Assembly: GCA_964625535.1 (NCBI GenBank)
Contig: CAZVEX010000001.1
Location: 64,295-128,294 of the forward strand
DNA length: 64,000 bases
Direction: 5' to 3'
From: an uncultured Gammaproteobacteria bacterium
GTDB lineage: Bacteria; Patescibacteriota; Microgenomatia; Daviesbacterales; UBA10151
Shown here: in pieces, positions 7,154 to 56,055 of the stretch
Layout: the number at the start of each line of letters is the position of its first letter
Position numbering within the stretch: position 1 is the first letter of the stretch
Made by a program: the position numbers and the translations under genes
Notes under the pieces: generated by a model
Seen by the model: only the letters and a program-made list of their open reading frames with translations
The model's database searches: none
What the model was told of the DNA's origin: nothing

Positions 7154-7195
7154 ATATCGCTATAGGATTTTAGTTTCAACTATTGAAATAGCGAT
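7154..7195. promoter_or_regulatory. Inverted repeat ATCGCTAT ... ATAGCGAT in 69-bp divergent intergenic region
   Basis: 8-bp perfect inverted repeat arms at 7156-7163 and 7188-7195 separated by ~24 bp. Confidence 0.3.
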
Positions 7196-7211
7196 TATCT
7201 CAAAGTAGAAT

Positions 7212-10997: not shown

Positions 10998-11026
10998 CTC
11001 TTGGGTTTTATTATATAATAATTTCA

Positions 11027-35037: not shown

Positions 35038-35038
35038 C

Positions 35039-35578: not shown

Positions 35579-35640
35579 TTTGTTCCTAATTATACCACTT
35601 CTTGTTCAAAAATCAACTATGGGATAAAATCAGAAAATTA

Positions 35641-35649
35641 TGGTATAAT
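35641..35649 (+). promoter_or_regulatory. Extended -10 element TGGTATAAT ~11 nt upstream of PfkB kinase start codon (leaderless or near-leaderless transcript)
   Basis: TGGTATAAT at 35641-35649, ATG at 35660; no convincing -35. Confidence 0.35.
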
Positions 35650-35659
35650 CTTTCCTGCG

Positions 35660-36634: not shown

Positions 36635-36648
36635 TAGAATAGGTTTAA

Positions 36649-39767: not shown

Positions 39768-40547
39768 ATGAAAGTTATTATTCTTTGTGGTGGTGCAGGC
39801 ACAAGATTAAAAGAAGAAACAGAATTCAAGCCAAAACCCATGGTGTATGTTGGAAACCAGCCTATCATATGGCATATCATGAAAATTTATTCTCACTTCG
39901 GATTCAACGAATTTATTCTGGCGTTAGGATATAAAGCAGAATACATTAAGGATTTTTTTCTTAACCAGAAAGCATTAACATCTGATTTTACTCTGAATAC
40001 CTCAAATTACAAAACAATTTATCACACAGATAGTAGAAAAAATCCAGATCATTTTAAAATTACATTTGTTGATACAGGTGTAGAAACTTTAATTGGAGAA
40101 CGAATCTTAATGTGCAAAAAGTACATTCCCGTTAAAGACAAATTATTTATGGTTACTTATGGTGATGGAGTTGCAAATGTAAATATTAAGGAAATTATTA
40201 GATTCCATAAGAAAAAAAAGACACTAGGTACAATAACCGGTGTTCATCCAAGATCAAAGTTTGGTCTTATTAAATTGGAAAAAGGTGGACTTGTTAAATC
40301 ATTCGTAGAAAAACCAGTATTGAATGATTGGGTAAACGGTGGCTTTATGGTTTTTAATAAGAAATTTTTTGATTTTATAAACCCCGGTGAGATGGAACAT
40401 GAGGCACTCAAAAGGATTGCTACAAAAAACGGTCTGGCCCTTTATAAACATAAAGGTTTTTGGTTTGCAGTTGATACTTATAGGGAACTTGAAGAGTTAA
40501 ATAAAATATGGGAAAGCGGTAATCCTCCCTGGAAAATATGGACATGA
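39768..40547 (+). CDS. rfbF: Glucose-1-phosphate cytidylyltransferase (RfbF/DdhA)
   Basis: MKVIILCGGAGTRLKEETEFKPKPMVYVGNQPIIWHIMKIYSHFGFNEFILALGYKAEYIKDFF is the characteristic RfbF N-terminus; 259 aa. Confidence 0.85.
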   Translation: MKVIILCGGAGTRLKEETEFKPKPMVYVGNQPIIWHIMKIYSHFGFNEFILALGYKAEYIKDFFLNQKALTSDFTLNTSNYKTIYHTDSRKNPDHFKITFVDTGVETLIGERILMCKKYIPVKDKLFMVTYGDGVANVNIKEIIRFHKKKKTLGTITGVHPRSKFGLIKLEKGGLVKSFVEKPVLNDWVNGGFMVFNKKFFDFINPGEMEHEALKRIATKNGLALYKHKGFWFAVDTYRELEELNKIWESGNPPWKIWT

Positions 40548-41572
40548 GAAGAATTTTAGTAACCGGCTCGGATGGTTATATTGGAGCGGTTCTGATTAAT
40601 AAATTATTGGAAAAAGGATATGAAGTTACAGGCTTAGATACTCTTTTCTTTAAGAACTCAGTTCTAGGTAATTATAATCCCAAATATAGACTCATAAAAT
40701 CAGATATACGGCAAATTCAAAATATAAATTTGTCTAAATTTGATGCAATAATCCACCTTGCAGCTTTATCAAATGACCCAATGGGTGAGATAGACCCGGA
40801 TCTGACAGAAGAAATAAATTACAGGGCAACTATAAAACTTGCAAAAAAGGCCAAAAAAGATCGAGTCAAAAGATTCATTTTTTCTTCATCCTGTAGCATT
40901 TATGGTAAATCTGAACAGGAAATAGTTGATGAAAATTCCAATATCAATCCTTTGACTGCTTATGCAAAATCTAAAATTGATTCGGAGAATGAGCTAAAAA
41001 AACTTGCAGATAAAAATTTCTGTGTATGTTTACCTCGGAACTCAACTGTCTATGGATATTCTCCAAAATTTAGGGATGATTTAGTAGTTAATAATCTTAT
41101 AACCCCTGCAATAGCTCTAAAAAAAATTTTTGTCAAAAGCGATGGGAGTCCTTGGCGTCCTCTTATTGACGTTAGGGATCTTGCTAATATTTTTATAAAT
41201 TTTTTAGAGATAGATAGTTATTTAGTAAATGGGCAGGTAATTAATATTGGCTTTAATGATAGTAATTATCAAGTTAATGATATTTTAAAAATAATTAAGG
41301 AACAGGTTCCTCAATGTGAAGTTATTTATACCGGTGAACATAGAGCTGATACAAGAAGCTACAGAGTTTCTTTCGATAAATTTATTTCACTTTTTCCTAA
41401 TATTAGACGGGAATGGCCATTACAAAAATCAACAAGAGATTTAATTGATAAATTAGAAAAATCAATGTTTAATGAGAAAGATTTAAATTCAAATAAATAC
41501 TCCAGAATAGAGGTTTTAAAAAGATTAATCTCGGATAAGAAAGTGGATAAAAAACTTTTTTGGATTCATTAA
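40538..41572 (+). CDS. CDP-glucose 4,6-dehydratase-like extended SDR (RfbG/DdhB-like)
   Basis: ILVTGSDGYIGAVLINKLLEKGYEVTGLD; Y-x3-K YAKSKIDSE; directly downstream of rfbF with 10-nt overlap. Confidence 0.65.
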   Translation: MDMRRILVTGSDGYIGAVLINKLLEKGYEVTGLDTLFFKNSVLGNYNPKYRLIKSDIRQIQNINLSKFDAIIHLAALSNDPMGEIDPDLTEEINYRATIKLAKKAKKDRVKRFIFSSSCSIYGKSEQEIVDENSNINPLTAYAKSKIDSENELKKLADKNFCVCLPRNSTVYGYSPKFRDDLVVNNLITPAIALKKIFVKSDGSPWRPLIDVRDLANIFINFLEIDSYLVNGQVINIGFNDSNYQVNDILKIIKEQVPQCEVIYTGEHRADTRSYRVSFDKFISLFPNIRREWPLQKSTRDLIDKLEKSMFNEKDLNSNKYSRIEVLKRLISDKKVDKKLFWIH

Positions 41573-42502
41573 ATGAATATTTTAATAACCGGCGGGACAG
41601 GCTTCATCGGTAGTCATCTTACCTTTAGACTGTTATCTTTGGGGCATAAAATAACCGTCTTAAAAAGACCAACATCAGATATCTGGCGAATAAAAGAAAT
41701 TGCCAGAAAAATAAATATTATAGATCTTGAATCTTTTAAAAATCTAGAATCTGTATTTATAAATAACAACCTCGATACAGTTATTCACTTGGCAACTGCA
41801 TATATAAAACATTCTGACAGGAGAAAAGAAATTAATCAAATGAAAAATACAAACATAACTTTCCCGTCTTTGCTGCTTAATTTTGCCATTAAAAATAAAG
41901 TTAAATATTTTATTAACACAGGCACTTGTTTTGAATACAAGCTCTCAGATACAAAAATAGATGAAAATCATAAAATATCCCCATATAATTTTTATGCCTC
42001 TACAAAAATAGCTTTTGAAGTCCTACTTAAATCTTTTGTAGAAAAAAATTACATCAGAGGAATTACCCTGAAATTATTTTACCCATATGGAGAAAAGGAT
42101 AACAATAAGGTGATTCCTCTAATGATTAAAGCTATTTTAAAAAAAGAGAAATTAAACTTAACTAAAGGTGAGCAAGAATTGGACTTTACCTATGTTGATG
42201 ATATTGTGGAGGCTTACATAAAAGCTCTTAGCTTTATTTCTTCAATAAAATATAAAAAGTATGAAGTTTTTAATATTGGAACAGATGAAGTATATAAACT
42301 AAAAAATATCGGTAAACTGTTAGAGAATTTGAGTGGAAATTATAAAAGTTTAAATTTTTCTAACCCCTATCCTTTAGATGAAATAATGTATATGTCTTGC
42401 AATTATAAAAAGGCAATGAAATTATTGAATTGGAAACCCGAAACAAGTATAATAAACGGAATAACAAAGACCTATGAGTCTTATTTAGAAAGCCTGAAAT
42501 GA
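41573..42502 (+). CDS. SDR nucleotide-sugar reductase/epimerase (CDP-paratose/abequose-synthase-like position)
   Basis: ILITGGTGFIGSHLTFRL; Y-x3-K YASTKIAFE; start codon abuts upstream stop. Confidence 0.65.
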   Translation: MNILITGGTGFIGSHLTFRLLSLGHKITVLKRPTSDIWRIKEIARKINIIDLESFKNLESVFINNNLDTVIHLATAYIKHSDRRKEINQMKNTNITFPSLLLNFAIKNKVKYFINTGTCFEYKLSDTKIDENHKISPYNFYASTKIAFEVLLKSFVEKNYIRGITLKLFYPYGEKDNNKVIPLMIKAILKKEKLNLTKGEQELDFTYVDDIVEAYIKALSFISSIKYKKYEVFNIGTDEVYKLKNIGKLLENLSGNYKSLNFSNPYPLDEIMYMSCNYKKAMKLLNWKPETSIINGITKTYESYLESLK

Positions 42503-42951
42503 TCGATGGAGTAAAAATCAAAAATTTAAAGAAAATCCCTGATGAAAGAGGAACTGTAATGCATATGCTAAGAAGTGATGATCCTGAATTTAAAAAATTT
42601 GGGGAAATTTATTTTACCACAGCTTACCCGCAAGTGATAAAAGGTTGGCATCTTCATTCCAAAATGACTTTAAACTATGTGGTAATTTCAGGAATGATAA
42701 AACTTGTTTTATACGATGACAGAAAGGAGTCAAAAACTAAAGGGGAAATAATGGAGTTATTTTTAGGTGAAGATAATTATTCCTTGGTCACAATACCACC
42801 TCTTGTTTGGAATGGATTTAAGGTTATTGGAGGTAAAACCGCAATTTTGGCAAATTGTCCGGATTTACCGCATGATCCTAAAGAGATGAAGAGATTGGAT
42901 CCATTAAAGAATAGCGTTATTCCCTATAATTGGGGCATTAAGCTAAAATAA
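42499..42951 (+). CDS. Small cupin nucleotide-sugar epimerase/ketoisomerase (RmlC/FdtA-like)
   Basis: 150 aa; GEIYFTTAYPQVIKGWHLHSKMTLNYVVISGMIKLVLYDD cupin core; 4-nt overlap with upstream SDR. Confidence 0.55.
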   Translation: MIDGVKIKNLKKIPDERGTVMHMLRSDDPEFKKFGEIYFTTAYPQVIKGWHLHSKMTLNYVVISGMIKLVLYDDRKESKTKGEIMELFLGEDNYSLVTIPPLVWNGFKVIGGKTAILANCPDLPHDPKEMKRLDPLKNSVIPYNWGIKLK

Positions 42952-42952
42952 T

Positions 42953-44182
42953 ATGCGCTCAAAATCCCCAAAAGATGATTTACGGGTTAGCTATGCTAAA
43001 GCCGTACATGGCGAGGCGGAGAAAAAAAGAGTAATAGCTGTTCTGGATGAGCACAGAACAATAATGGGTCAAGAAATTAATGAATTTGAAGAAAGAGTAA
43101 GTAAGTTTTTCGGTCGCAAATACGGAGTAATGATTAATTCAGGTTCCTCTGCAAATTTACTTGCCCTAGAAATTCTAAATTTTCCCGAAGGTTCTGAAAT
43201 AATTACCCCTCTTTTAACATTCTCAACAACTGTTGCTCCAATTGTACAAAAAAAACTTATACCGGTCTTTGCTGATGTTGAAAATGGAAGCTATCAAATA
43301 AATGTGGATCAAATTGAGAAACTAGTTACCATAAAAACTAGAGCCTTAATGATTCCTCTTCTTTTAGGAAATGTTCCTGATCTTGAAAGATTACATCATC
43401 TTGCCAGAAAGAAAAAGTTAATTCTGATAGAAGATTCTTGTGATACATTTGCAGCAATTTTTAATGGTAAACCAACCAGTAGTTTTAGCGATATTACAAC
43501 AACCAGTTTTTATGGTTCACATATAATAACTGCGGGGGGAGGAGGAGGGATGATTATGATGGATAATATGAAATGGAGAGATAAGGCTAAAGTTTTTAGA
43601 GGATGGGGTAGAAGTTCTTCTATATTTGGTGAATCAGAAAGTATTGCAATCCGCTTTAAAGCAAAAATTGGAAATATTCCATATGATGCTAAGTTTGTTT
43701 TTAGTGAACCTGGCTATAATTTTTTACCCATAGAGATGTGTGCCGCATTTGGTAATGCTCAACTAGATAAAATAAAGGACTTTAGAAAATTGCGTGAATA
43801 TAATTTTAAAAGACTATATATTTTTTTTAGAAAATATTCGAACTTTTTTGAATTACCCATACAAGATAAAAGGGTAAAAACTTGGTGGCTTTCGTTTCCT
43901 CTAACAATAAAACCAAACGCTCCGTTCACCAGAATTGAAATTATGACATATTTGGAGAAAAATAATATACAAACAAGGCCAATTTTCACGGGAAATGTAT
44001 TAAAACAACCGGGATTTAAAAAAATTCCTCACAGATTGCTTGCCGGATATGATTACCCGATTACTAATGAGATAATGAAGCAAGGGTTTGTTATAGGTTG
44101 TCATCATGGTTTGACAGATAAACATCTTGAAAAGATTGAGCGAATTTTTACGCTATTTTTAAATGAATGTGTTTCATTTTGA
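42953..44182 (+). CDS. DegT-family enzyme with His replacing PLP Lys: predicted PMP-dependent 4-keto-6-deoxy-sugar 3-dehydratase (E1/DdhC/ColD-like)
   Basis: TTSFYGSHIITAGGGGGM aligns to canonical SF(H/Y)xxKxx...GEGG with K->H as in ColD/E1; last gene of rfbF-led operon. Confidence 0.6.
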   Translation: MRSKSPKDDLRVSYAKAVHGEAEKKRVIAVLDEHRTIMGQEINEFEERVSKFFGRKYGVMINSGSSANLLALEILNFPEGSEIITPLLTFSTTVAPIVQKKLIPVFADVENGSYQINVDQIEKLVTIKTRALMIPLLLGNVPDLERLHHLARKKKLILIEDSCDTFAAIFNGKPTSSFSDITTTSFYGSHIITAGGGGGMIMMDNMKWRDKAKVFRGWGRSSSIFGESESIAIRFKAKIGNIPYDAKFVFSEPGYNFLPIEMCAAFGNAQLDKIKDFRKLREYNFKRLYIFFRKYSNFFELPIQDKRVKTWWLSFPLTIKPNAPFTRIEIMTYLEKNNIQTRPIFTGNVLKQPGFKKIPHRLLAGYDYPITNEIMKQGFVIGCHHGLTDKHLEKIERIFTLFLNECVSF

Positions 44183-44815
44183 CAAGCGTCTTGGAGTGAT
44201 TATTATAATATTGTGATTTATTTCCATATTGTAGCAATTATTTTCCTTTAAAATAATTTTTTCAATCTTAGCGATTGTTGGATAATCTTTTTTTCCCATA
44301 AACGCATCGGCATCATCTATTAAAATGACATGGCGTTTGATTTTGTGACTAAGAATAGAAGTAAGCTCTTCCCATACGGGAGTTTCCTTTATTCCTTTGA
44401 TTGTAATTCCTTTTGAATAATGAGCATCTAACCAAAATAGGCATGGCCTGTTTATTTTTTTTATAATTTTAGGTAACATAACCGAACTGTCTCCGTGTAT
44501 AATTTGTATAGTCTTAAATTTTTTAAATTTGCTTTTTGCGCGCTCGTATAATTTTCTGTCCAGTTCTATTGAATAAATCCGGGAAAAAATATTTTTATTA
44601 GCGCTTACAGTGGTTCCGAGGTAAGTGCCAGTCTCAATCAAAATTGACAACTTATATTTTGTTGCGTGGCTTTTAATTATTTCTTGTTTTATAAATTGGG
44701 GCGTATATTTATGATTACTTTCCAGAAACCACTCTATTTTTTGTAATATTTGCAAGACTGGATAAATGAGATCATATAGAAAGGTATATTTTAATTTCTC
44801 AAAAAATTTTTCCAT
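44174..44815 (-). CDS. SAM-dependent methyltransferase-like protein (class I fold, sugar O-methyltransferase candidate)
   Basis: ILIETGTYLGTTV (motif I-like), FWLDAHYSK, VILIDDADAF resemble TylF/FkbM-type MTases; 213 aa. Confidence 0.45.
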   Translation of the reverse strand: MEKFFEKLKYTFLYDLIYPVLQILQKIEWFLESNHKYTPQFIKQEIIKSHATKYKLSILIETGTYLGTTVSANKNIFSRIYSIELDRKLYERAKSKFKKFKTIQIIHGDSSVMLPKIIKKINRPCLFWLDAHYSKGITIKGIKETPVWEELTSILSHKIKRHVILIDDADAFMGKKDYPTIAKIEKIILKENNCYNMEINHNIIIITPRRLSK

Positions 44816-44879
44816 TTTTTGGTTGACTTTTGTTTAGTATATAATATAACAACTTTCAACTATTTTTGAGAATTGTAAC

Positions 44880-46646
44880 ATGATTACTGTTGGTTTTTAT
44901 AAGGGACATAATGCTACTGCCTGTATATTAAAGGATGGCAAAATAATTGCTGCAGTCTCTGAAGAGAGATTTAATCGGATCAAAAATGCCGACGTTTTTC
45001 CTATTGAGGCAATCAAGTTTTGTTTGAGGCAGGCAAACGTTAAAGCGCAGGATGTAGATTATTATGTCAGGACATATACGCATCCGGAGGGATTTGTCGC
45101 CTCATCCCGTGAAACAAGAATGCCGATGCTTATCCAACTATTAACTTATCTTTTAGTGTTTGCAAGAAAATTACTACTTATCTTTCCGCCTCTGATCTCT
45201 TTAGGCAGATTTTTACATGAGCTTATTTATACAAAGACTTTAACCCCTTGGTATCAAAATCAGTTTAGAAAAACTATGTCAGAATATTTGAAAATTGACA
45301 AAAATAAAATAATTTTTGCTGATCATCACACATGTCATGCGTATGCTGTATACTACGGATTTGTACCAGAGGAAAAACAAAATGAAGATTGGTTAGTGAT
45401 TACTTTAGATGGAGCAGGAGATGGGGACTGTGGAGGTGTTTGGGCAGTTGAGGATGGTAAGTGGAGCAGACTAGCTAAAACGCCGGCAGGCTCATCCATT
45501 GCGCTTTTTTATGGAATGATCACAAGATATTTAGGGATGAAGTTGAATGAGCATGAGTATAAAGTAATGGGTCTTGCCCCATATGTTTCTTCTCATGAAA
45601 TTTCCAAAGTTTATTCTTTATTTGAGGGATTATTTAGGACTGATGAAAATTTGGTTATGCATTCAAAGATTCTGTCTGGAGCACTTCTTGATTACTTTGA
45701 TACCATTTTAAGGCATAAACGCTTTGATGGTATAGCTGGTGCTGCCCAAAAGTATGTAGAAGATGTAGTTTCGGATTTAGTAGTAAAAGCTATTAAAAAA
45801 AGTGGTATAAAAAACCTAGCAGTTGCGGGAGGGTTTTTTATGAATGTAAAAGCTAATAAAAAGATTGCGGAACTCAAAGAAATTGGAGAGTTTATTCCCT
45901 GTCCTACCGCATCTGATGAGTCAACTGTTTTCGGAGCAGCATTCTTCGGATATGAGCTGCTATGCAAGCAAACAGATAAACCTTTCTCAACTGAGAATAT
46001 TAAGACTCTTTATCTGGGTCCAAAATTTTCAGATGCGGAGATAAGTGAAGTACTAAAGAAAAATAAACATTTACAAAGATATAGAGTTAAGAAATTTAAA
46101 GATATAGAGAAAAAGATAGCCTCACTTTTAGTAAAAGGTAAGATAGTCGGTAGATTTAAGGATAAAATGGAATGGGGAGCGAGAGCCTTGGGTAATAGAT
46201 CTATCTTTATGGATCCACGACGTAAGGATCTAATTATGAAATTAAATGAACAAATAAAATCCCGGGATTTTTGGATGCCTTTTGCAGCAAGCATTTTGGA
46301 TACTTGTGAAGAAAAATATATTGTAAACAGCAAAGGCATTAACGGCGAATTCATGATTTTAGGTTTTGATACAACTCGTAGGGGGAAGTCTGACTTGGCT
46401 GCTGCGATCCATCCCTACGATTTTACATGCAGGCCTCAAATTGTAAAAAAAGAGGCCAATCCTGATTATTACAACTTAATTAAATATTTTGAACAGGGAA
46501 CAGGAGTAGGTGCGATTTTAAACACATCTTTCAACCTGCACGGTGAGCCGATTGTTTGTGTCCCGCAGGATGCGATTAGTACCTTTGAAAGATGTGATCT
46601 AGAGTATTTAGCATTAGGAAGTTACCTGGTATGGAAAAAAAGATGA
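44880..46646 (+). CDS. NodU/CmcH-family O-carbamoyltransferase
   Basis: MITVGFYKGHNATACILKDGKIIAAVSEERFNRIKNADVFP is the hallmark N-terminus (Kae1/YgjD-like fold); 588 aa typical length. Confidence 0.85.
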   Translation: MITVGFYKGHNATACILKDGKIIAAVSEERFNRIKNADVFPIEAIKFCLRQANVKAQDVDYYVRTYTHPEGFVASSRETRMPMLIQLLTYLLVFARKLLLIFPPLISLGRFLHELIYTKTLTPWYQNQFRKTMSEYLKIDKNKIIFADHHTCHAYAVYYGFVPEEKQNEDWLVITLDGAGDGDCGGVWAVEDGKWSRLAKTPAGSSIALFYGMITRYLGMKLNEHEYKVMGLAPYVSSHEISKVYSLFEGLFRTDENLVMHSKILSGALLDYFDTILRHKRFDGIAGAAQKYVEDVVSDLVVKAIKKSGIKNLAVAGGFFMNVKANKKIAELKEIGEFIPCPTASDESTVFGAAFFGYELLCKQTDKPFSTENIKTLYLGPKFSDAEISEVLKKNKHLQRYRVKKFKDIEKKIASLLVKGKIVGRFKDKMEWGARALGNRSIFMDPRRKDLIMKLNEQIKSRDFWMPFAASILDTCEEKYIVNSKGINGEFMILGFDTTRRGKSDLAAAIHPYDFTCRPQIVKKEANPDYYNLIKYFEQGTGVGAILNTSFNLHGEPIVCVPQDAISTFERCDLEYLALGSYLVWKKR

Positions 46647-47338
46647 TTAAATTTTCAAAGAAATATAATTTATTTTTAACCTTCTTATTTTATGCATATG
46701 GCTTCTTAAATTCTTTGCTATTCAAGTTTCAACTTTCAGTAATTTATTATCATTACGAGAAAAAGATTTTAAACTTAATTAATAATCTTCGTTCAAGTGG
46801 AGACTTACTTCTTACAGTTGTAGAAAGCCTACAAGTGTATGAATGCGCGAGAAGTGCACAAAAAATAAAAGGGGATTTTGCAGAAGTTGGAGTTTATAGA
46901 GGAGGGAGTGCTGTAATCATTTCAGAGGTCAAAAAAGGAAAGAAGTTCCATCTTTTTGATACTTTTGAAGGGTTGCCTGATAATGAGAAAATAGATTCAC
47001 TTGTTGGGGATAATTCAATGGTAAGCAATCTGGATGAAGTGAAAAGTAAATTAAAAAGATACAAGAATGTCTATTTTTATAAAGGTTTATTTCCAAAAAC
47101 CGGGAATAAAATAAAAAAAGATAAATTTGCATTTGTGCATCTGGATGTTGATTTATACAGAAGTACAATCAATAGTTTAAAATTTTTCTACCCTAAAATG
47201 AGCAAAGGAGGAATCATACTTTCACATGATTATCCCTTTATGCCGGGAGTAAAAAGAGCTTTTGATGAGTTTTTTGAAAATAGAAGGGAATTAGTTTTAA
47301 AGCTTTCAGGAAATCAAGCTATTGTAATTAAAATATAA
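46643..47338 (+). CDS. TylF/MycF-family sugar O-methyltransferase
   Basis: GDFAEVGVYRGGSAVIISEV, FDTFEGLP, HLDVDLYRST, SKGGIILSHDY match the macrocin-O-MTase family; start at 46643 (ATGA overlap) or 46631. Confidence 0.75.
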   Translation: MIKFSKKYNLFLTFLFYAYGFLNSLLFKFQLSVIYYHYEKKILNLINNLRSSGDLLLTVVESLQVYECARSAQKIKGDFAEVGVYRGGSAVIISEVKKGKKFHLFDTFEGLPDNEKIDSLVGDNSMVSNLDEVKSKLKRYKNVYFYKGLFPKTGNKIKKDKFAFVHLDVDLYRSTINSLKFFYPKMSKGGIILSHDYPFMPGVKRAFDEFFENRRELVLKLSGNQAIVIKI

Positions 47339-47340
47339 TT

Positions 47341-48105
47341 ATGGAAAACTATGAAGCTTTAAATGCATTAGAGAATGCAGTTAACTCCATTAAGGATAAG
47401 AAGGATAGGGAATTTTCTCTAGATGCCTTTTCGGGGCATAAAAGGAGATACCTTAATGATTTAAATATTATAAGAAATTTTTATAAAGGGGGCAAAATAC
47501 TGGACATAGGTTCATCTCCATACCATATGCTATTTTTGCTCAAAAAACTTAAGTGGGATGTATATGGCATAGATATAAATCCTCAAATCTTAAGGAAATT
47601 TCAAGCACAGCACGGATTAAAAGTAAAAAGTTGCGATATAGAAAAAGAGAAAATCCCCTTTAAAGATGGTCAATTTTCTTTCATCATTTTTAATGAAGTG
47701 TTTGAGCATCTAAGGATAGATCCCCTTGCTGCAATATTAGAAGTTAAGAGAGTATTAAAAAAAGGAGGCATATTACTTTTAACAACCCCCAACCTTTACG
47801 CTTTACACAAGATTATAATGTTTAACACCGGTTTTAGTTTCAACAATGCTTTTTTTGAATTTAATAAAGTTAAAACTACCGGATATATGGGACACATAAG
47901 GGAATACTCAAATAAAGAAATAAAAGAAATACTGATAAATTCAGGATTTAGAGTTAAATACACAAATTTTGAAAATTATAATAATTTTTCAAATGTTCAT
48001 TTTTTGAAGAGATTTCCTTTAAATATCCTTGTGCTGCTTTTTGATTTTATATTAAAAATCATTCCTCCATTTAGACAGTATCAGATTGTTGTTGCAATTA
48101 AATGA
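47341..48105 (+). CDS. Class I SAM-dependent methyltransferase
   Basis: ILDIGSSPYHMLFLL (motif I), VYGIDINP, GILLLTTPNLYALH. Confidence 0.7.
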   Translation: MENYEALNALENAVNSIKDKKDREFSLDAFSGHKRRYLNDLNIIRNFYKGGKILDIGSSPYHMLFLLKKLKWDVYGIDINPQILRKFQAQHGLKVKSCDIEKEKIPFKDGQFSFIIFNEVFEHLRIDPLAAILEVKRVLKKGGILLLTTPNLYALHKIIMFNTGFSFNNAFFEFNKVKTTGYMGHIREYSNKEIKEILINSGFRVKYTNFENYNNFSNVHFLKRFPLNILVLLFDFILKIIPPFRQYQIVVAIK

Positions 48106-48112
48106 AAATAAT

Positions 48113-49183
48113 ATGAAAATCAAAAGAAGAAATCATCCTTTAGTTTCGGTTTTGATTTTAACTTACAATAGGACGGATCTTTTAAAGATGTGTCTGGACA
48201 GCGCCTTAAAATCTAACTACCCAAATTCGGAATTTATTGTTTCCGATAATGCTTCACAGGATGATATAGCGGGATTTATCAGAAAAACTTACCCCCAAAA
48301 AAAGATTAGAGTTTACAAGAAAAAGAAGAACGGTGGTTTAACAGGGGGATTTAATTTTGGCTATCAATATTGTCGGGGGAAATACGTCATGTTGCTTTGT
48401 AATGATACCACCATCGCCAAGAAATCAATTTCCGAGATGGTCAAAATGGCGGAAAATGATCCAAAAATTGGCGCGATTGCTCCGAAAGTGACACAGATGA
48501 GACATCACGGTTATATCCACAGCGCTGGTAGCTTTCTAACTTCCAGTGGCCTGCTTTACCATTATGGAGTCTATCAAAAAGATGGTAAAAAATACCAAAA
48601 AAGTTATTATATTTTCAGTACAACAGGAGCAGGATTTCTCGTTAGAAGCGAAACTATAGCAAAGACCGGACTTTACACTGAGGATTTTTTTATGGCATAT
48701 GATGAGAGTGACCTGTGTCATCGCATTTGGCTTGCCGGGTACACAGTTGTTTATTGTCCCAAGGCGGAAGTTAAACATATGTGGAGCGCCACCATGCAGG
48801 TTATGAGTAACCCCGCAATTTGGTTTTGGAACCAAAGAAACGTAAATAGTTCCTTTATCTACAATTTTCAGTTGCGATATCTATGGCGATTTTTAATTAG
48901 CATTAATCTGGCGTTTATATTTTTTTCCATCTACAGACTTTTTAGCAGGCAAAGGGTATTTTCGGCAACTATTATCCAGGCATATTTATGGCACATTTTT
49001 CATATCAGACAAACACTGAAGAAACGGAAAATTATACAAAAAAAGAGAATTGTTTCAGACCGGGAAATTTTCCAAAAAGCCATGGTAAATCCTGACTTGG
49101 GATACTATCTAATCCATTTCCGGAAAAAATATTCGGATATGGAACTGCCAAAAAGAATAATCTACAACCTCAAATCTCCTTGA
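48113..49183 (+). CDS. GT2 glycosyltransferase with C-terminal membrane segments
   Basis: LVSVLILTYNRTDLLKMCLDSAL ... EFIVSDNASQDD ... YDESDLC; C-terminal hydrophobic LWRFLISINLAFIFFSIYRLF; start 48113 or 48086. Confidence 0.8.
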   Translation: MKIKRRNHPLVSVLILTYNRTDLLKMCLDSALKSNYPNSEFIVSDNASQDDIAGFIRKTYPQKKIRVYKKKKNGGLTGGFNFGYQYCRGKYVMLLCNDTTIAKKSISEMVKMAENDPKIGAIAPKVTQMRHHGYIHSAGSFLTSSGLLYHYGVYQKDGKKYQKSYYIFSTTGAGFLVRSETIAKTGLYTEDFFMAYDESDLCHRIWLAGYTVVYCPKAEVKHMWSATMQVMSNPAIWFWNQRNVNSSFIYNFQLRYLWRFLISINLAFIFFSIYRLFSRQRVFSATIIQAYLWHIFHIRQTLKKRKIIQKKRIVSDREIFQKAMVNPDLGYYLIHFRKKYSDMELPKRIIYNLKSP

Positions 49184-50333
49184 AGGCTTTGTCAAGAATA
49201 AAATTCAGGTCGTATTTTTTTGACAACTTTATGGCGTTTGTTTTATATTTTAAATAATTCTTTTTGCTGTTTAATATTTTTTCTACGGCTTTTACAAAAT
49301 CAATCTCACTGTAGTCAATGACTATTCCCGACTTCGTTTTTGAAATTTGGGAAGCAATTGTAGTCACTATTGTTGTTATGACCGGTAATCCGCAAATAAG
49401 ATATAGTTTTATCTTAGACGGATCAGATTTATAACTTACGCTCTCTTTAAGCGGAGCATAAGGCGCAAGGCCGATGCTTGATCTGGCAACTATATTTATC
49501 AGTTTGTAATAGTCTTCAATAAAACCTAAGAACTCCACATGATTTGAGATATTTAATTCTTTTATTAATCTCTTTAATTCTTTTTCGTAATAACCAGACC
49601 CAATAATAGTAAGCTTTATTTTGGAAAATTTAGTAATAAGTTTGGGGATTGATTTAATCACAAGTTGTAGACCTGCCCATTCCAGTAATCCGCCTGTAAA
49701 AATTATTCTAAAGTAATTAATCCTATCAATCGGCATGGGTTTAATTTCTGACCTGTCATAACCGATAGGAACAATTGAAAATTGTGAGAATTGGTTTAGG
49801 GGACCATAATTTGCCTTTCTTGCATTGATTTGTTCTTTAGTAACTACCCAATTAATATCTGAATATCTGCATGAAGCTTTGTCAATTAAGTAGTAAAGAT
49901 TATTCATTATTCTGTTGTTAAAACGCTTATTTGTGTAATCTATTGAATAATAAACTAAATTATTGATTAGGCCGATTTTCCTAAAGATTAAGGTTGAAAT
50001 TAGGGATAAATTTTCACAGGCAATGCAGATATCGAATCTAGAGAAAGATCTGACGATGAAGTATGAGGAAAGTAAGAAGTGGTATATAAATTGCAGCCAA
50101 TCAGGTCCTTTAATATTTGCAACCTTCTTTTGATAAACAAGTGTGCCTCTTTTAAAAATGCTTAGAAAAGAATATTGGATTTGAGCATGCGGGAAAGGGT
50201 GTTCAATATAAACAACCGTATCCGTTCTTTTTAGTAAGTATTTAAGAATTCCTGGAGCAGCCGGACCCTGGTTTGTCCTGATTACAAAATGCGTTAAAAG
50301 TAAAGTTTTTGTACTATCTTTTTTTATTTGCAT
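49170..50333 (-). CDS. GT4-like (GT-B) glycosyltransferase
   Basis: C-terminal [52 protein letters not shown] resembles GT4 E-x7-E region; 14-bp overlap with convergent GT2. Confidence 0.55.
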
Positions 50334-51276
50334 GCCTTTGATTTTTCAGATACCAGTCAATGGTTTGTTGCAAGCCTTTTTCAAAAGTTGTTTTTGCAGA
50401 AAAACCAAATTCTGATTTTGCTTTTTCTACATTAAGAAACCTTCTTGGTTGTCCATCCGGTTTGGTTTTGTCATAAATGATTTTTGCTTCAAAGCCGATT
50501 AATCTGCATATTAACTGCGTTAAATTTTTAATAGAGATTTCAAAGCCTGAACCTAAATTAACAGGTTCCGGTTTATTATATTTTTCAGCCGCTAAAATTA
50601 TTCCTTTCGCAGCGTCTTCTACAAATAGAAATTCCCGGGTAGGTTTTCCAGTCCCCCAAATTGTAATTGTTTTTTGGCCACCATTTTTTGCATCAATGAT
50701 TTTTCTTATGAGGGCAGGTATTACATGAGAATCTTTCGGATCAAAATTATCACCGGGTCCGTATAAATTTACCGGTAGAAGATAAATTGAATTGAAGTTA
50801 TACTGCTTTCTGTAAGCCTGGGATTGCACCAGAAGCATTTTTTTTGCAAGGCCATAAGGAGCATTTGTTTCTTCAGGATACCCATCCCATAAATCTTCTT
50901 CTCTAAATGGGATCTTAGTAAACTTCGGATAAGCGCATATTGTCCCAATTGCAACGAATTTTTTTACTTTAGCTTTTCTTGCTTCTTCCATTAACTGTAC
51001 ACCCATTATTATGTTGTCATAAAAAAGTTTTCCTGGATATTTTTGGTTATAACCTATGCCGCCTACATTTCCTGCTAGGTGAATTACGATGTCAGTATCC
51101 TTAACAACTTTTTTGCAGTTTGCTTTAAACCTTAAGTCAAAATCTTTAGAGCGCGGGATGATAATTTTTTTTGGATTTAATTTTTTGAGCTTATTGATTA
51201 CATGGATTCCTAAAAAACCACCCCCTCCAGTGACAGTTACTGTTTTTCCTTTCCAGAAAGAACTGATTTTTTTCAT
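50314..51276 (-). CDS. GDP-L-fucose synthase-like 3,5-epimerase/4-reductase (Fcl/WcaG/ColC-like)
   Basis: [18 protein letters not shown]; [15 protein letters not shown]; [28 protein letters not shown] is the Fcl signature. Confidence 0.75.
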
Positions 51277-51320
51277 TGGTCGCTGAAAATTTTATCATAG
51301 GAGTATATAATTTACTAGCT

Positions 51321-53993
51321 ATGAGACAGGTCCTGTTTTTGATTATTTTATGTTTAACCCTGACCTTTATTTGGTTTCATAAGGGCTTAGTATTTGCCGG
51401 CGGAGAAGAAGGCATGCCATTTTACGATCTTGAAAAAACAGTAAGATATTATTCATCGGTTTGGCATGAATCAGGTACAGGATTTCCAGCAGTTAATGAA
51501 CAAAGAATTCCCATATTTAGTTTTCTTAGGATGTTTTACCAAGTAGGTATTCCGGGATTTGTGCTTCAGGCTTTCCTGTTTTTCTTATTGATGAGTATTG
51601 GCACTGTTTCAGTATATTTTTTAATAAAAGAAACAATTACAGCAGATCATAAGTATCTTCCACTGATTGGGGGAATATTTTATCTTCTTAATCCTTTTTC
51701 CATGACTCAAATTTGGGGAAGAGGACTCTATATGCAATTTTTCCCTTTTGCTCTTTTCCCGCTTTTTTTAATTTTGTTTATTTTAGGTTTGAAAAGAAAG
51801 AATTTTTTGTACGGGATTGCAGCTTTGATTTCTTCTGTTGTGTTTTCGGCGGCTTTTGACAATATTAGTTATGCTCTATCTCTTTGGCTTGTTATCTTCC
51901 TTTACGGTCTTTTTCACCTGATTAAACATTTTAATAAAAAAGAGATTATTTTTACTGTTGCATTTTTTACATTTCTGTTTTTAGGTTGGATTTTGTTACA
52001 TCTTTTTTGGATCCTGCCTTTTCTTGCTCTTTCCACCCAGCCTTATGCGGGTATAACAGAGAACCCGGAGCAGGGATTAGGTAGTTTAAGGGGTGTCAGT
52101 AGACAATACCCTTTGCATGTTTTGATAAGACTGATGCACAGCGGCTATTTTTTTGAGGATTTATACGGAAAAATTTATTCTGGTTTTATATTTGGTTTGA
52201 TCAGCTGGATTATTCCGCTGGTTTCACTTTTTTCCATCAAACAATTTAAAAAACTTTCCCATTTTTGGTTTTTTACCCCCCTTTTTCTTATTGGATTGTT
52301 TATCAGTTTAGGATCTAATTTCCCGTCGGGTTGGTTGTTCGAAGTACTGTTTAAATACATGCCCTTTTTCCAGATGTTCAGAAACCCTTTTGAAAAATTC
52401 GGTTTGGTTTTTTTAATTGCGTATGTGCCGTTTTTCTCTCTGGGAGCTTTAATAGTTGCTCAAAAAATTGGACATATCTTTAAAAAAGAAACAGCCAGAT
52501 TTCTAAGTCTTGCGATAATTATCGTGTTAGTTTGTGGAATCTATGTTTGGCCGATGTGGACAGGGATATTTGCGGGAGGCTATAGACTGAATCCATGGGT
52601 TAAAGTGCCGGATGATTATAAAGAAATGGAAAAGTGGCTGGATGGAAATTCGGAAGATTATAGAGTCTTTATGACCCCCATCTGGAGTGGTGATGGAACA
52701 TTCTACCAGTGGGGCAATACAAGATTTCAAGGGACTGACCCAATGATATATCTTATTAACCAACCGGCGGTTTCTTACAGCAGCCAGGTGCCTGGTTTTC
52801 TTTCAAGTATGCGGAAAAATATGGAGAGGATCAATCTGGCTCCATCTCTTGCGCTTTTTCAAGCCAAATACCTAATAGACCGGGTTGATGCGGTAATGAT
52901 CACAGAGGCTGAAAAACAGCACAGTAAGTTTTTAACAAGATTTGTGTATCCGCCTATGGGAATAAACTTAAGTACTCAAAAAGTTTGCCAAGACAAATAC
53001 GCGGATTCTAAAGCAAACGGCGTTGCTTGGATAACTTGTCAAATATCAGGTACCAATAGAGATTGGAGTAAAATAAAGTATGCGCATTTTGAGATTAAAA
53101 CAGATGTGCCGGCCTTTTTGGAAATTGCACTTAGAGATCAAGACGGGATTAGGATCAGGTGGTATGGTCCTGCTGATGCAGAATATCAAACAAACAATAA
53201 TGAATGGACAGTTGTGACCATTCCTTTAAGCGCGCCTACAGAATATAATCAGGCAATAAATTTTTCTAAAGTAGATTTAATAGAAATATTTGCCCATCCA
53301 ATATATTCCCCCCAGACCAGTGTGGGAGAAATCTTCCTTAAAGATATTATATTGGATCCTGGCAAAGAGGAGAAAACGCAAAGTTTTCACTTAGTTAATA
53401 CATTCGGCAAGCTACAAGTTTATGAGCCTTTCAACTTTAATTCTCCCCCTGAATTTGGTAGTTTATCATCGCTTAACTTGGTTCAGGACTTTGCGCAGTT
53501 GTTTGAGGAAGTAAACAGACAAATAGGTCAGCTTGATACAATAGGGTATATCTTAGCAACACAAAACAGCAGGAAAAATTTGCAGGAATTACCCTCTGAT
53601 GGTATCCTGCAGGTTATAGATAAAGATAAGATTTCTGATTCCAGATATTGGCTGGAGGTGAATAAAGGTGATGGTAACGGGTTGATTATTCTTAGTAAAA
53701 CATTTAATTCTCAGTGGAAAGTAATCCCCGGGATCAGCAAAGATCAGCTTAGCGGTAAATTTTTTGATAATTTGGTTCTTATTAGGGAAGCAGTATTGCC
53801 AGAAGACCAGCATTTTGCAGTTAATGGCTATGCAAATTTATGGAAAGTGAGCGAGCAAGATTCACAATATGCGATTGTATTCATGCCTCAAATTTTTGCC
53901 GATATTGGTTGGAAAGTATCTATTTTCAGTATAATATTGTTAGGTGGAGTTACATTAGTATGGGTTCTAAAAAAATATACATTTTTGCACTAG
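51321..53993 (+). CDS. Giant polytopic membrane protein with ~450-aa extracytoplasmic C-terminal domain (GT-C-like; DUF3367/AftD-like?), paralog A
   Basis: Start at ATG 51321 (MRQVLFLIIL); conserved with paralogs B/C: GGEEGMPFYDL, MFRNPFEKFGLVFLIAYVPFFSLG, VWPMWTGIFAGGY; C-terminal TM anchor. Confidence 0.5.
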   Translation: MRQVLFLIILCLTLTFIWFHKGLVFAGGEEGMPFYDLEKTVRYYSSVWHESGTGFPAVNEQRIPIFSFLRMFYQVGIPGFVLQAFLFFLLMSIGTVSVYFLIKETITADHKYLPLIGGIFYLLNPFSMTQIWGRGLYMQFFPFALFPLFLILFILGLKRKNFLYGIAALISSVVFSAAFDNISYALSLWLVIFLYGLFHLIKHFNKKEIIFTVAFFTFLFLGWILLHLFWILPFLALSTQPYAGITENPEQGLGSLRGVSRQYPLHVLIRLMHSGYFFEDLYGKIYSGFIFGLISWIIPLVSLFSIKQFKKLSHFWFFTPLFLIGLFISLGSNFPSGWLFEVLFKYMPFFQMFRNPFEKFGLVFLIAYVPFFSLGALIVAQKIGHIFKKETARFLSLAIIIVLVCGIYVWPMWTGIFAGGYRLNPWVKVPDDYKEMEKWLDGNSEDYRVFMTPIWSGDGTFYQWGNTRFQGTDPMIYLINQPAVSYSSQVPGFLSSMRKNMERINLAPSLALFQAKYLIDRVDAVMITEAEKQHSKFLTRFVYPPMGINLSTQKVCQDKYADSKANGVAWITCQISGTNRDWSKIKYAHFEIKTDVPAFLEIALRDQDGIRIRWYGPADAEYQTNNNEWTVVTIPLSAPTEYNQAINFSKVDLIEIFAHPIYSPQTSVGEIFLKDIILDPGKEEKTQSFHLVNTFGKLQVYEPFNFNSPPEFGSLSSLNLVQDFAQLFEEVNRQIGQLDTIGYILATQNSRKNLQELPSDGILQVIDKDKISDSRYWLEVNKGDGNGLIILSKTFNSQWKVIPGISKDQLSGKFFDNLVLIREAVLPEDQHFAVNGYANLWKVSEQDSQYAIVFMPQIFADIGWKVSIFSIILLGGVTLVWVLKKYTFLH

Positions 53994-55120: not shown

Positions 55121-55128
55121 CTTCTTAT

Positions 55129-56052: not shown

Positions 56053-56055
56053 CTT

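Follow-up and report, generated by a model that had tools for sequence, protein, structure and literature searches.

A carbamoyltransferase and three neighboring methyltransferases most likely decorating a surface glycan in a Patescibacteria bacterium

The 64-kb stretch of DNA analyzed here (hereafter the window) belongs to a Patescibacteria/CPR genome and is filled by a glycan island of more than 60 kb. Its gene content comprises glycosyltransferases, NDP-sugar enzymes, GT-C proteins, including several AftD-like GT-C membrane proteins, and approximately nine methyltransferases. A TylC3-type sugar C-methyltransferase is also encoded at 7212–8459. The 64-kb window has no recognizable exporter of the Wzx, Wzy, or ABC type. 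The initial annotation described a carbamoyltransferase (hereafter CarbT) followed by a TylF-like and a second methyltransferase (MT254), and preceded by a divergent methyltransferase-like gene (MT213). All four ORFs were found where it had placed them, and its family assignments proved right, by Pfam matches and, for the divergent gene, by the predicted fold. The family matches of these genes are far beyond the chance level. The features of the locus are as follows.

39768–44182, forward strand: CDP-deoxyhexose pathway, with glucose-1-phosphate cytidylyltransferase, two SDRs, a cupin epimerase-like protein, and an E1/RfbH-type 3-dehydrase (NCBIfam, PDB, GC ranking)
44174–44815, reverse strand: putative cation-dependent O-methyltransferase MT213, divergent (weak RrnaAD/Erm matches, motifs, AlphaFold and Foldseek)
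44880–46646, forward strand: O-carbamoyltransferase CarbT, 588 aa (Pfam, PDB sequence matches, residue conservation, AlphaFold, Foldseek)
46631–46645, forward strand: relic of the ancestral GT2 start (ATGGAAAAAAAG, 'MEKK') within the 3' end of CarbT (comparison with loci L084, L085, and L087)
46643–47338, forward strand: O-methyltransferase of the TylF/MycF family, in a short 231-aa form that depends on SAM and metal (PF05711, PDB matches, conservation)
47341–48105, forward strand: generic class I SAM methyltransferase MT254, partner of TylF in an accessory cassette (Pfam, PDB, gene order, hydropathy)
48113–49183, forward strand: GT2 glycosyltransferase, 356 aa, conserved partner of CarbT (Pfam Glycos_transf_2, 9.7e-22)
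49170–51276, reverse strand: GT4 (387 aa) and GDP-L-fucose-synthase-like SDR (320 aa) (Pfam, NCBIfam, co-occurrence)
51276–61710, forward strand: remainder of the core, with an AftD-like GT-C membrane protein (905 aa), GT4 (426 aa), GT2 (307 aa), MT219, a GT2-methyltransferase fusion (534 aa), and a 1146-aa membrane protein (Pfam, gene order)

CarbT exceeds the Pfam gathering scores of Carbam_trans_N (3.5e-34) and Carbam_trans_C (1.7e-56) by a wide margin, and the ORF contains the N-terminus quoted in the initial annotation, MITVGFYKGHNATACIL...SEERFNRIKN. It is a complete enzyme of the TobZ/NovN/GdmN type (NodU/CmcH family), and all catalytic residues are present. The N-terminal Kae1-like transfer domain carries the base H10 and the metal ligands H149, H153, D177, and D346, and the C-terminal YrdC-like carbamoyl-adenylate-forming domain carries GARALGNRS from residue 433, K460, R462, and NTSFN from residue 548, with residue roles assigned after PMC9633730. 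Across 56–118 homologues, the transfer-domain residues and the YrdC-type motifs vary little or not at all; the metal-binding His pair and the YrdC-like domain, both of which had been proposed as checks, are thus in place. The sequence matches TobZ, VtdB, GdmN, and NovN in the PDB at 1e-50 to 1e-57, and the AlphaFold model (pLDDT 91.7) matches the same four enzymes in Foldseek with E of approximately 1e-45 and TM 0.77–0.83. TsaD/Kae1 reaches only 0.009 by sequence and TM 0.37 by fold, and HypF only TM 0.30 by fold. Since HypF and Kae1 match CarbT far worse, the closer alignment with HypF or Kae1/TsaD that would have spoken against the NodU/CmcH assignment was not found.

CarbT shares with the class III two-domain enzymes TobZ, NovN, GdmN, and VtdB the architecture, the catalytic His base, the His-His-Asp-Asp metal site, and the YrdC-type carbamoyl-AMP-forming motifs, but the identity is only 24–26%. 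The distance from the catalytic His to the HHxxH motif is 100 residues in TobZ and 139 in CarbT, which has a helical hairpin inserted at residues 83–137, whereas the extra C-terminal dimerization region of GdmN and NovN is missing from CarbT. The hairpin is strongly hydrophobic in CarbT's subclade. Since this TM-like hydrophobicity is restricted to the closest subclade, the insert points only weakly to a lipid-linked substrate.

The homologues of CarbT form at least 7,900 clusters, mostly from uncultured bacteria and archaea, and glycosyltransferase and sugar-pathway genes surround the homologue in every relative whose neighborhood was examined. Many phages also encode family members (146 records), and a metagenomic study reportedly linked carbamoyltransferases to cytosine modification, so CarbT might carbamoylate a nucleic-acid or other hydroxyl, as proposed for phage members acting on hydroxymethylcytosine, with its adjacency to glycan genes incidental. 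We give this reading almost no weight: the translational coupling of CarbT and GT2 is kept in six relatives, one homologue (P0061) is a CarbT-GT4 fusion protein, and DNA-modification and phage genes are absent nearby.

The TylF-like ORF contains GDFAEVGVYRGGS, as first reported, and matches PF05711 (TylF) at 1.4e-24 and 87 bits (cutoff 23). Its length is 231 aa from 46643, or 235 aa if the upstream ATG at 46631 is used. It differs from the canonical family in this short form, in matching only profile positions 87–246 of 264, with the canonical N-terminal region unmatched, and in carrying HDY in place of DDY. The SAM motif (E81-x-G83...G87 and D106) and the metal-site residues (D168, D170, and H195-D196) are conserved among 120 homologues, and the PDB matches are 5i10/4cdz, NovP (2.4e-13), and MycF. 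The ATGA overlap with CarbT is real, with the ATG of TylF at 46643–46645 and the TGA of CarbT at 46644–46646.

In the novobiocin pathway, NovP is a TylF-family 4-O-methyltransferase and NovN a 3-O-carbamoyltransferase, and they share the deoxysugar noviose. Since both act on noviose, the two chemistries are able to coexist on one 6-deoxysugar. The side-by-side TylF and CarbT belong to the same two families, with NovN (3e-55) and NovP (2.4e-13) among their top solved matches; the pair could modify the sugar of a diffusible glycolipid or a secondary-metabolite-like signal rather than a surface polymer. NovP/NovN and NodU/NolO/NoeI (Nod factors) are analogues for such a role, the nearest solved structures (NovN, NovP, TobZ, GdmN, VtdB, and MycF) are all natural-product enzymes, and the TylC3-type gene lies in the window. 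However, antibiotic pathways are over-represented among solved structures, PKS, NRPS, NodA/B/C, aglycone-forming, and efflux genes are all missing from the window, and the GT/GT-C core around CarbT is syntenic across Patescibacteria. The TobZ-type enzymes are encoded in antibiotic clusters, whereas CarbT lies in a glycan island. NodU and NolO belong to the Pfam family of CarbT and also work on a GT2-made (NodC) oligosaccharide, but CarbT is not orthologous to them: with the NCBIfam NodU model it reaches 67 bits (cutoff 1000), on residues 271–557 only, an annotated NodU is only 25% identical across half the length (residues 268–555), and nodABC genes are lacking at this locus. We therefore consider a small-molecule role very improbable.

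MT254 matches Methyltransf_23 (2.7e-17), Methyltransf_11 (5.9e-16), and Methyltransf_25/31, as well as PDB 3cc8 (7e-12), and its C-terminal segment is hydrophobic. In MT213, the sequence search found no Pfam domain, and the RrnaAD/Erm matches were sub-threshold only. Foldseek pairs its AlphaFold model (pLDDT 88.5) with class I O-methyltransferases of the cation-dependent type at a probability of 1.0, and ETGTxxG, E84, D130, H132, D167, and D168 are invariant in the family. MT213 has more than 3,500 homologues. Since the Foldseek match and the invariant SAM and metal motifs agree, the earlier label of a methyltransferase-like gene is fair.

L001, L003, L004, and L086, where CarbT is 58–61% identical, share the collinear order CarbT-GT2-GT-C-GT4-GT2-(MT)-GT2/MT-large protein, and MT219 is the variable member. 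GT2, which starts at ATG 48113 with TTG 48086 as a possible alternative and has only generic GT-A enzymes among its PDB matches, abuts or overlaps CarbT in six relatives (L001, L003, L084, L085, L086, and L087) and is CarbT's conserved partner, to which it is normally coupled in translation. In L084, L085, and L087, GT2 begins within the 3' end of CarbT, at the corresponding position, with ATGGAAAAA ('MEK'), and the relic at 46631 marks the left junction of an insertion. TylF and MT254 lie adjacent to each other upstream of CarbT in L084 and L085, they are not at the CarbT/GT2 junction in L087, and 80 species-level loci lack them. TylF and MT254 form an accessory cassette of low GC whose insertion point is precisely this junction, and the pairing of CarbT with TylF appears to be evolutionarily recent and positional. 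NovP and NovN act on one sugar, whereas TylF and CarbT are neighbors through cassette insertion. Among the loci examined, MT213 is present solely in the window's own strain. The four genes initially grouped as one block therefore do not form one evolutionary unit: CarbT belongs to the core, and TylF and MT254 belong to the cassette.

TylF, MT254, and MT213 are within the five lowest-GC genes of the window's 55, and against 700-bp windows they fall under the 4th percentile. The TylF genes of the relatives are likewise low in GC, and this could reflect gene-intrinsic composition, not recent transfer. Like the three methyltransferases, the adjacent CDP-deoxyhexose pathway (G1P_cyt_trans 2.8e-82, RfbH 1.2e-99; the 3-dehydrase matches PDB E1 3bcx at 1.4e-69 and keeps the active-site His) bears the low-GC signature, and it is a candidate supplier of the methylated sugar. 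The GT4 and GDP-L-fucose-synthase-like SDR genes (GDPFucSynFcl 6.2e-87, under the model cutoff) co-occur with CarbT homologues in distant loci (L005, L009, L013, L019, L049, L084, and L085) and are a second accessory pair, inserted within the conserved core.

CarbT is a genuine carbamoyltransferase, and together with its three neighboring methyltransferases it most likely decorates a surface glycan of this CPR bacterium. With moderate confidence, we consider that the block encodes cytoplasmic tailoring enzymes for a Patescibacteria envelope glycan with core carbamoylation and accessory methylation, and the best inference is that the exported glycan would bear O-carbamoyl and O-methyl groups. 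The two-domain mechanism is established for this family, and we infer it for CarbT since residue conservation is full. The YrdC-like domain would convert carbamoyl phosphate and ATP to carbamoyl-AMP, as in TobZ, GdmN, and NovN, and the Kae1-like domain, holding a metal via H149, H153, D177, and D346, would carbamoylate a sugar hydroxyl deprotonated by His10. Since CarbT is a core member usually coupled to GT2 and followed by the AftD-like GT-C, GT4, GT2, and the GT2-MT fusion, its target is most likely, judging from gene coupling, the GT2-installed sugar on a lipid-linked intermediate ahead of export or extracytoplasmic assembly. Putative O-methyl groups would be added by the TylF-type enzyme, using SAM and a divalent metal, by MT254, and by the lone MT213. 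With lower confidence, their target may be a 6-deoxy or 3,6-dideoxyhexose, with either the CDP-sugar pathway or the Fcl-like SDR/GT4 pair as its supplier. Carbamoylation of the surface glycan is predicted to be clade-conserved, and the methylation pattern strain- or lineage-variable.

The methyl and/or carbamoyl group might instead sit only on the non-reducing terminal sugar of the finished polymer, stopping elongation and marking it for export, and not on every repeat unit. Models are WbdD of E. coli O8/O9a and WsaE of the Geobacillus S-layer glycan; like Rv2954c/55c/56 of PGL-tb, these are SAM methyltransferases in surface-glycan loci, as here. O-methyl caps are standard, established termination signals in O-antigens and S-layer glycans, and WsaE is a glycosyltransferase-methyltransferase fusion (PMC2943079), a type likewise found in the core here (56712–58316). 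The PGL-tb terminus of M. tuberculosis is a tri-O-methyl-fucose built by three methyltransferases (PMC3594219), and its locus, with a fucose-synthase-like gene near several methyltransferases, resembles the three methyltransferases by the Fcl-like SDR/GT4 pair. However, no Wzm/Wzt ABC transporter or cap-recognizing carbohydrate-binding module was found within 64 kb, nor a kinase or a methyltransferase with an attached coiled-coil 'ruler' domain, and the multiple GT-C enzymes argue for extracytoplasmic assembly rather than full cytoplasmic polymerization. We regard a purely terminal modification as unlikely.

GT-C enzymes include oligosaccharyl- and protein-mannosyl-transferases. The island encodes several large GT-C/PMT-like membrane proteins (a faint PMT_2 match at 31627–33132 and the AftD-like protein at 51276–53993), and a PglD-like acetyltransferase and DegT aminotransferases in the window recall bacillosamine-type protein-glycan pathways. 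The tailored product might thus be an O- or N-linked oligosaccharide carried by a surface protein, such as an S-layer protein or a pilin, not a free polysaccharide or lipoglycan. This is a minor possibility: no PglB/AglB/PglL oligosaccharyltransferase domain is recognizable, no target protein was identified, and the sole GT-C match over the Pfam threshold is to the polysaccharide-building AftD (GT-C_AftD, 5.2e-9). We thus favor decoration of an envelope glycan, for which carbamoylation also has a precedent. The 7-O-carbamoyl-heptose (HepII) of the Pseudomonas LPS core is attributed to the putative carbamoyltransferase WapO (PA5005)/PSPTO_4992, which resembles CarbT in family and glycosyltransferase-gene setting (PMC8005017); the CPR host presumably lacks LPS, and the partners of CarbT differ (GT2 and GT-C). 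Given these precedents, the abundance of homologues, and the glycan-type neighborhoods of all relatives examined, there is no support for the initial suggestion that secondary-metabolite sugars and Nod factors bear such groups more typically than cell-surface polysaccharides do. The gene families involved are already well known and widespread, and the annotation of the locus is sound and fairly ordinary.

The four open reading frames of the decoration block (44174-48105) are present exactly as described in the initial annotation, and are followed by the glycosyltransferase gene coupled to CarbT.

Decoration genes and the following glycosyltransferase gene
44174-44815, minus strand: MT213, divergent methyltransferase-like gene
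44880-46646, plus strand: CarbT, O-carbamoyltransferase, 588 aa
46643-47338: TylF, short TylF-family methyltransferase
47341-48105: MT254, class I methyltransferase
48113-49183: GT2, glycosyltransferase

CarbT carries both Pfam carbamoyltransferase domains above the gathering scores, PF02543 (Carbam_trans_N, 3.5e-34, residues 10-354) and PF16861 (Carbam_trans_C, 1.7e-56, residues 414-586), which bears out its placement in the NodU/CmcH family. This Pfam layout comprises an N-terminal Kae1/ASKHA-like and a C-terminal YrdC-like domain. The nearest solved relatives in the PDB by sequence are O-carbamoyltransferases throughout: VtdB (7xb6, 1.8e-57), NovN (9s2t, 3e-55), TobZ (1e-50), and GdmN (1e-50). 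The AlphaFold model (pLDDT 91.7, pTM 0.91) matches TobZ, VtdB, GdmN, and NovN over its full length in Foldseek (E~1e-45, TM 0.77-0.83). HypF and Kae1/TsaD, which the initial annotation had named as the competing identities, are much poorer matches by sequence, profile, and fold, and the carbamoyltransferase assignment stands. HypF (TIGR00143) aligns over 62 residues and reaches 28.6 bits where the cutoff is 466, with a Foldseek TM of 0.30, and TsaD/Kae1 reaches 15.6 bits (cutoff 296), with E=0.0086 in the PDB sequence search and a TM of 0.33-0.38; the two NCBIfam models cover just ~60 residues of CarbT. Orthology to NodU was likewise rejected. The NodU model NF041651, whose cutoff is 1000 bits, gives 67.5 bits and aligns to residues 271-557 only, and an annotated nodU shares 25.5% identity across 49% of the query. 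A Pfam/profile search of the 64-kb window found no nodABC genes that would give a nod gene context.

The catalytic residues can be followed in the alignments. The Kae1-like metal-binding His pair, one of two features that the initial annotation proposed to check, is present as H149 and H153, which align in HMMER to chain residues 120 and 124 of TobZ. Given a 6-residue tag offset, we take these to be the TobZ metal ligands H114 and H118, the full set being H114, H118, D137, and D338. The remaining two ligands are supplied by the aligned TLDGAGD motif, with D177 in CarbT, and the aligned ASDE motif, with D346, and all four residues are 100% conserved in 118 CarbT homologues. In GdmN, the metal ligands are H133, H137, residue 156, and residue 333 (PMC9633730). 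His10 of CarbT aligns with the His of TobZ, NovN, and VtdB; it is 97% conserved in the 118 homologues and invariant in a 56-sequence set. The general-base role of this N-terminal His has been described for TobZ H14 and GdmN H27 (PMC9633730), and the PDB title of 3vex, "TobZ H14N variant", agrees with the H14 numbering. The second feature, the YrdC-like C-terminal domain, is PF16861, and its motifs are invariant in the homologues (G433-x-R-x-L-G-N-R-S, K460, R462, and N548-T-S-x-N552). In enzymes of this family, the C-terminal domain converts carbamoyl phosphate and ATP to carbamoyl-AMP, and the N-terminal domain then passes the carbamoyl group on to a hydroxyl. From the conserved motifs, the same two-step mechanism can be assumed for CarbT. 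CarbT is a genuine, complete TobZ-type (class III) O-carbamoyltransferase, with every testable defining feature in place.

CarbT differs from TobZ in the distance from the base His to the HHxxH motif, which is 139 residues instead of 100. The longer segment is modelled by AlphaFold at lower confidence as two helices (83-101 and 105-137), and the insert length is typical of genome-encoded relatives. Its TM-like hydrophobicity (Kyte-Doolittle 1.95-2.28) is found only in the subclade of the window (the window, L084, L085, and L087) and in one outlier locus, L017. Since it is so restricted, a family-wide membrane anchor is ruled out, and the insert gives only a weak hint of possible contact with a membrane or lipid substrate.

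The methyltransferases were also assigned largely as first proposed. The ATGA overlap is real, with the TylF ATG at 46643-46645 and the CarbT TGA at 46644-46646, and the TylF/MycF-family assignment is confirmed by PF05711 (1.4e-24, 87.2 bits against a cutoff of 23). The TylF-like protein contains GDFAEVGVYRGGS, and its SAM motif (E81-V-G83...G87 and D106) is 100% conserved. Its PDB matches are 5i10/4cdz (1.5e-14), NovP (2.4e-13), and MycF (4e-7). The divalent-metal site of the family is built from LDxD and DD(Y) aspartates, and its candidate residues here are the conserved LDVD aspartates D168 and D170 and the 97% conserved D196. The first Asp of "DDY" is replaced by an invariant His (H195) in the short TylF subfamily, and this His could serve as a metal ligand. 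Canonical TylF, MycF, and NovP enzymes have ~250-280 aa with an N-terminal auxiliary/lid region, whereas the enzyme here has no match in that region: of the 264 profile positions, Pfam aligns only 87-246, and residues 1-70, outside the match, are moderately hydrophobic (KD peak 1.43). The short form of ~230-245 aa is common to 120 TylF homologues among the matches listed, from >3,300 hits overall. MT254 is, as stated initially, a generic class I methyltransferase (Methyltransf_23/11/25/31). MT213, which shares 81% identity with a Daviesbacteria protein, reaches no Pfam threshold and shows sub-threshold RrnaAD/Erm similarity only; its family has >3,500 members. In an alignment of 54 homologues, ETGTxxG, E84, D130, H132, and D167-D168 are invariant. 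Its AlphaFold model (pLDDT 88.5, pTM 0.86) matches cation-dependent class I O-methyltransferases (3ntv, TrmR, COMT, and SafC) with a Foldseek probability of 1.0, at a TM of only 0.5-0.6. These invariant motifs and the fold match justify the "MTase-like" label. Taken alone, the family-level functions of the tailoring enzymes merit very high confidence.

A different picture of the gene block emerged from synteny across 80 species-level genome loci and six metagenomic contigs. In four loci with 58-61% CarbT identity (L001, L003, L004, and L086), the gene order is CarbT, GT2, AftD-like GT-C (a membrane glycosyltransferase class), GT4, GT2, an optional methyltransferase, a GT2-methyltransferase fusion, and a >1,100-aa protein. 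This order is collinear with 44880-61710 of the window after removal of three insertions.

Insertions in the window relative to the four collinear loci
46643-48105: TylF and MT254
49170-51276, minus strand: GT4_387 (GT4 glycosyltransferase) and the Fcl-like SDR (SDR320)
MT219: variable methyltransferase of the core

CarbT and GT2 overlap or abut in 6/6 close relatives examined, and GT2 of L084, L085, and L087 begins (ATGGAAAAA, "MEK...") within the final codons of CarbT. The window keeps a relic GT2 start, ATGGAAAAAAAG, at 46631, ahead of the TylF ATG at 46643, and its GT2 restarts at the ATG at 48113, where MKIKRRNHPLVSVLILTYNRT aligns with MEKxxxPLVSVLILTYNRT of the relatives. The relic and the restart indicate that the cassette was inserted directly behind the first three GT2 codons. 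The locus shows, at nucleotide resolution, a tailoring cassette placed in an operon junction with translational coupling unbroken.

A conserved four-gene "decoration operon" is ruled out by the distribution of these genes. A TylF homologue is found in 0/80 species-level loci, a TylF+MT254-like pair lies upstream of CarbT in L084 and L085 (74-75% identity), and TylF relatives (55-58% identity) occur in other CPR glycan loci without CarbT, beside GT4, aminosugar, and MBOAT/AlgX genes. The contig L087 (80% identity) has no TylF+MT254 at the CarbT/GT2 junction and other genes upstream of CarbT. MT213 was found, among the loci compared, only in contigs of the window's own strain. The GC contents of TylF (0.292), MT254 (0.293), and MT213 (0.298) are among the five lowest of the 55 window genes, the other two being SDRs of the adjacent CDP-sugar pathway, while CarbT (0.367) and GT2 (0.373) are average, in agreement with a core and an accessory part. 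Repeat searches gave no meaningful direct repeats flanking the cassette, and promoter and terminator scans gave the same counts as shuffled sequence.

The whole 64 kb window is one glycan island of a CPR bacterium, with many GT2/GT4 genes (>10 glycosyltransferases), several NDP-sugar pathways, and about nine methyltransferases, among which are a TylC3-type sugar C-methyltransferase and the GT2-methyltransferase fusion. Scans for tRNA and Rfam RNA found none in the window. Pfam recognised no Wzx, Wzy, or ABC exporter in the window, where several large membrane proteins remain without annotation.

Very large proteins of the window (500-1146 aa), with absent or faint Pfam matches
10955-12904
13665-15554
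17743-19662
19645-21480, minus strand
21414-23711, minus strand
31627-33132, minus strand
51276-53993, 905-aa AftD-like protein
58270-61710

Among the seven or eight large membrane proteins, only the 905-aa protein is above the Pfam threshold for AftD GT-C (GT-C_AftD, 5.2e-9), and it has no sequence match in the PDB; others have faint PMT_2 and DUF5667 matches. The N-termini of the 905- and 1146-aa proteins look similar by eye. These proteins may form a GT-C glycosyltransferase family that assembles the glycan outside the membrane. The coupled GT2 (GT2_365) was considered as a DPM1/GtrB-type polyprenyl-phosphate sugar synthase feeding GT-C, a role that is not supported, its best PDB hits being chondroitin synthase, GalT1, and similar enzymes.

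Two modules could supply a deoxysugar. The genes at 39768-44182 encode a glucose-1-phosphate cytidylyltransferase (2.8e-82), two SDRs, a cupin epimerase-like protein, and an E1/RfbH-type 3-dehydrase, and are a CDP-3,6-dideoxyhexose-type pathway of putative chemistry. The 3-dehydrase (42953-44182; best PDB match 3bcx, 1.4e-69) keeps the active-site His in SFYGSH, but is cysteine-free where it aligns with the cysteine-containing stretch of E1. No E3 reductase gene is visible nearby, and the enzyme may perform ColD-like chemistry on a CDP-sugar. In the second module, SDR320 resembles GDP-L-fucose synthase (6.2e-87, below cutoff), and SDR320 and GT4_387 recur beside CarbT homologues in distant loci. 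The characteristic substrates of TylF-family enzymes are 6-deoxysugars, as established for TylF, MycF, and NovP. Given this preference, the deoxyhexose of one or the other module is most likely the methyl acceptor; the specific acceptor assignments carry low confidence.

Other sugar genes of the island were noted. The TylC3-type C-methyltransferase (7212-8459; Methyltransf_13 zinc-binding and Methyltransf_14, 3.6e-59), an "antibiotic-type" tailoring enzyme, predicts a branched-chain sugar. The region 33815-38750 encodes a 6-phospho-3-hexuloisomerase (TIGR03127, 4.4e-55, above cutoff), a ribulose-phosphate 3-epimerase, a PfkB sugar kinase, a 529-aa nucleotidyltransferase/kinase-like fusion, and a HAD phosphatase, a set that resembles a route for activating an unusual sugar derived from a ketose or heptose. 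At 28025-30697, a GFO/IDH/MocA oxidoreductase, a hexapeptide acetyltransferase, and a DegT aminotransferase stand in a row, reminiscent of WbpB/WbpD/WbpE, the enzymes leading to 2,3-diacetamido uronic acids; three comparable genes lie together beside TylF relatives in L088 and L089.

Carbamoylation and methylation draw on ATP, carbamoyl phosphate, and SAM, which are cytoplasmic. Since all three chemistries need cytoplasmic cofactors, decoration must precede export. CarbT would most likely carbamoylate the residue placed by the coupled GT2 on a lipid-linked intermediate, and the methyltransferase cassette would add O-methyl groups that vary by lineage. We consider this overall reading reasonably probable. 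The methyl or carbamoyl groups might instead cap the non-reducing end and terminate the chain, by analogy with WbdD and WsaE (PMC2943079). The GT2-methyltransferase fusion at 56712-58316 (534 aa), a conserved core member that is 61-70% identical in L001 and L086, has an architecture analogous to that of WsaE, a chain-terminating rhamnosyltransferase/methyltransferase; we regard termination as unlikely. A protein-linked glycan in place of a polymer seems similarly improbable. Both alternatives refine, rather than truly exclude, pre-export carbamoylation with lineage-variable methylation. NovP and NovN acting on noviose are the closest functional analogy for the adjacent TylF/CarbT pair, and all solved structures of CarbT relatives come from antibiotic pathways. 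A diffusible product of the NovP/NovN or Nod-factor kind is nevertheless very improbable for this locus.

The initial annotation had proposed an exported glycan with O-carbamoyl and O-methyl groups and had called these decorations more typical of secondary-metabolite sugars and Nod factors than of surface polysaccharides. This interpretation is partly supported. From the enzyme families, the first part is probable. The second part fails at the genomic level, since the CarbT family is very large and widespread, with at least 7,924 clusters (90% identity) at E<=1e-10. Homologues occur in CPR, Omnitrophota, DPANN archaea, Leptospira, Pelagibacter, and Prochlorococcus, as well as on plasmids, in cyanophages, and in pelagiphages. 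The closest species-level relatives are Patescibacteria, including Woesebacteria (58-59% identity), and metagenomic contigs carry relatives at 74-80%. A 2026 review of carbamate-bearing carbohydrates mentions neither polysaccharides nor LPS; as a biological precedent, the WapO-dependent 7-O-carbamoyl-heptose in the LPS core of Pseudomonas comes closest (PMC8005017). For annotation, neither TobZ-type carbamoyltransferases nor short TylF-type methyltransferases mark secondary metabolism; both are common in glycan loci of uncultured lineages.

Taken one by one, the enzymes are ordinary representatives of known families. Of more interest are the conserved CarbT-GT2-GT-C module and the nucleotide-level view of cassette insertion. 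The candidate assembly module comprises CarbT translationally coupled to GT2, the AftD-like GT-C, GT4, GT2, the GT2-methyltransferase fusion, and the >1,100-aa GT-C-like protein, and our literature search found no report of a CarbT-GT2-GT-C module in Patescibacteria. We tentatively suggest, as a possibility still short of an even chance, that CarbT is a fixed part of a so far undescribed envelope-glycan module of Patescibacteria, with the carbamoylated glycan as a clade hallmark and methyltransferase and deoxysugar cassettes giving strain-level variation. The surfaces of these bacteria mediate their episymbiotic lifestyle, and to our knowledge the chemistry of their envelopes is almost uncharacterised. 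If the suggestion holds, swappable cassettes would serve, for example, host attachment or phage evasion in ultrasmall episymbiotic bacteria. The locus predicts a clade-conserved +43 Da carbamate and strain-varying +14 Da methyl ethers.

In phages, 146 records encode "Nol-like carbamoyltransferase" homologues with 25-30% identity, such as those of Synechococcus phage S-SSM7 (103614-105362) and of Pelagibacter phage HTVC008M (128890-130401). In HTVC008M, the features beneath the match are annotated as carbamoyltransferase and methyltransferase. A non-sugar substrate, as proposed for phage enzymes, is exceedingly improbable for CarbT. A 958-aa homologue (P0061) is a natural CarbT-GT4 glycosyltransferase fusion, a "Rosetta-stone" link of the CarbT clade to glycan assembly. 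Two CarbT paralogues share one glycan locus in L009 (16752-17651, minus strand) and in L039/L041 (same contig, MFLZ01000023.1), and L049 has tandem copies at 6246-7958 and 8001-9767. These pairs suggest that those organisms carbamoylate two or more sites or acceptors.
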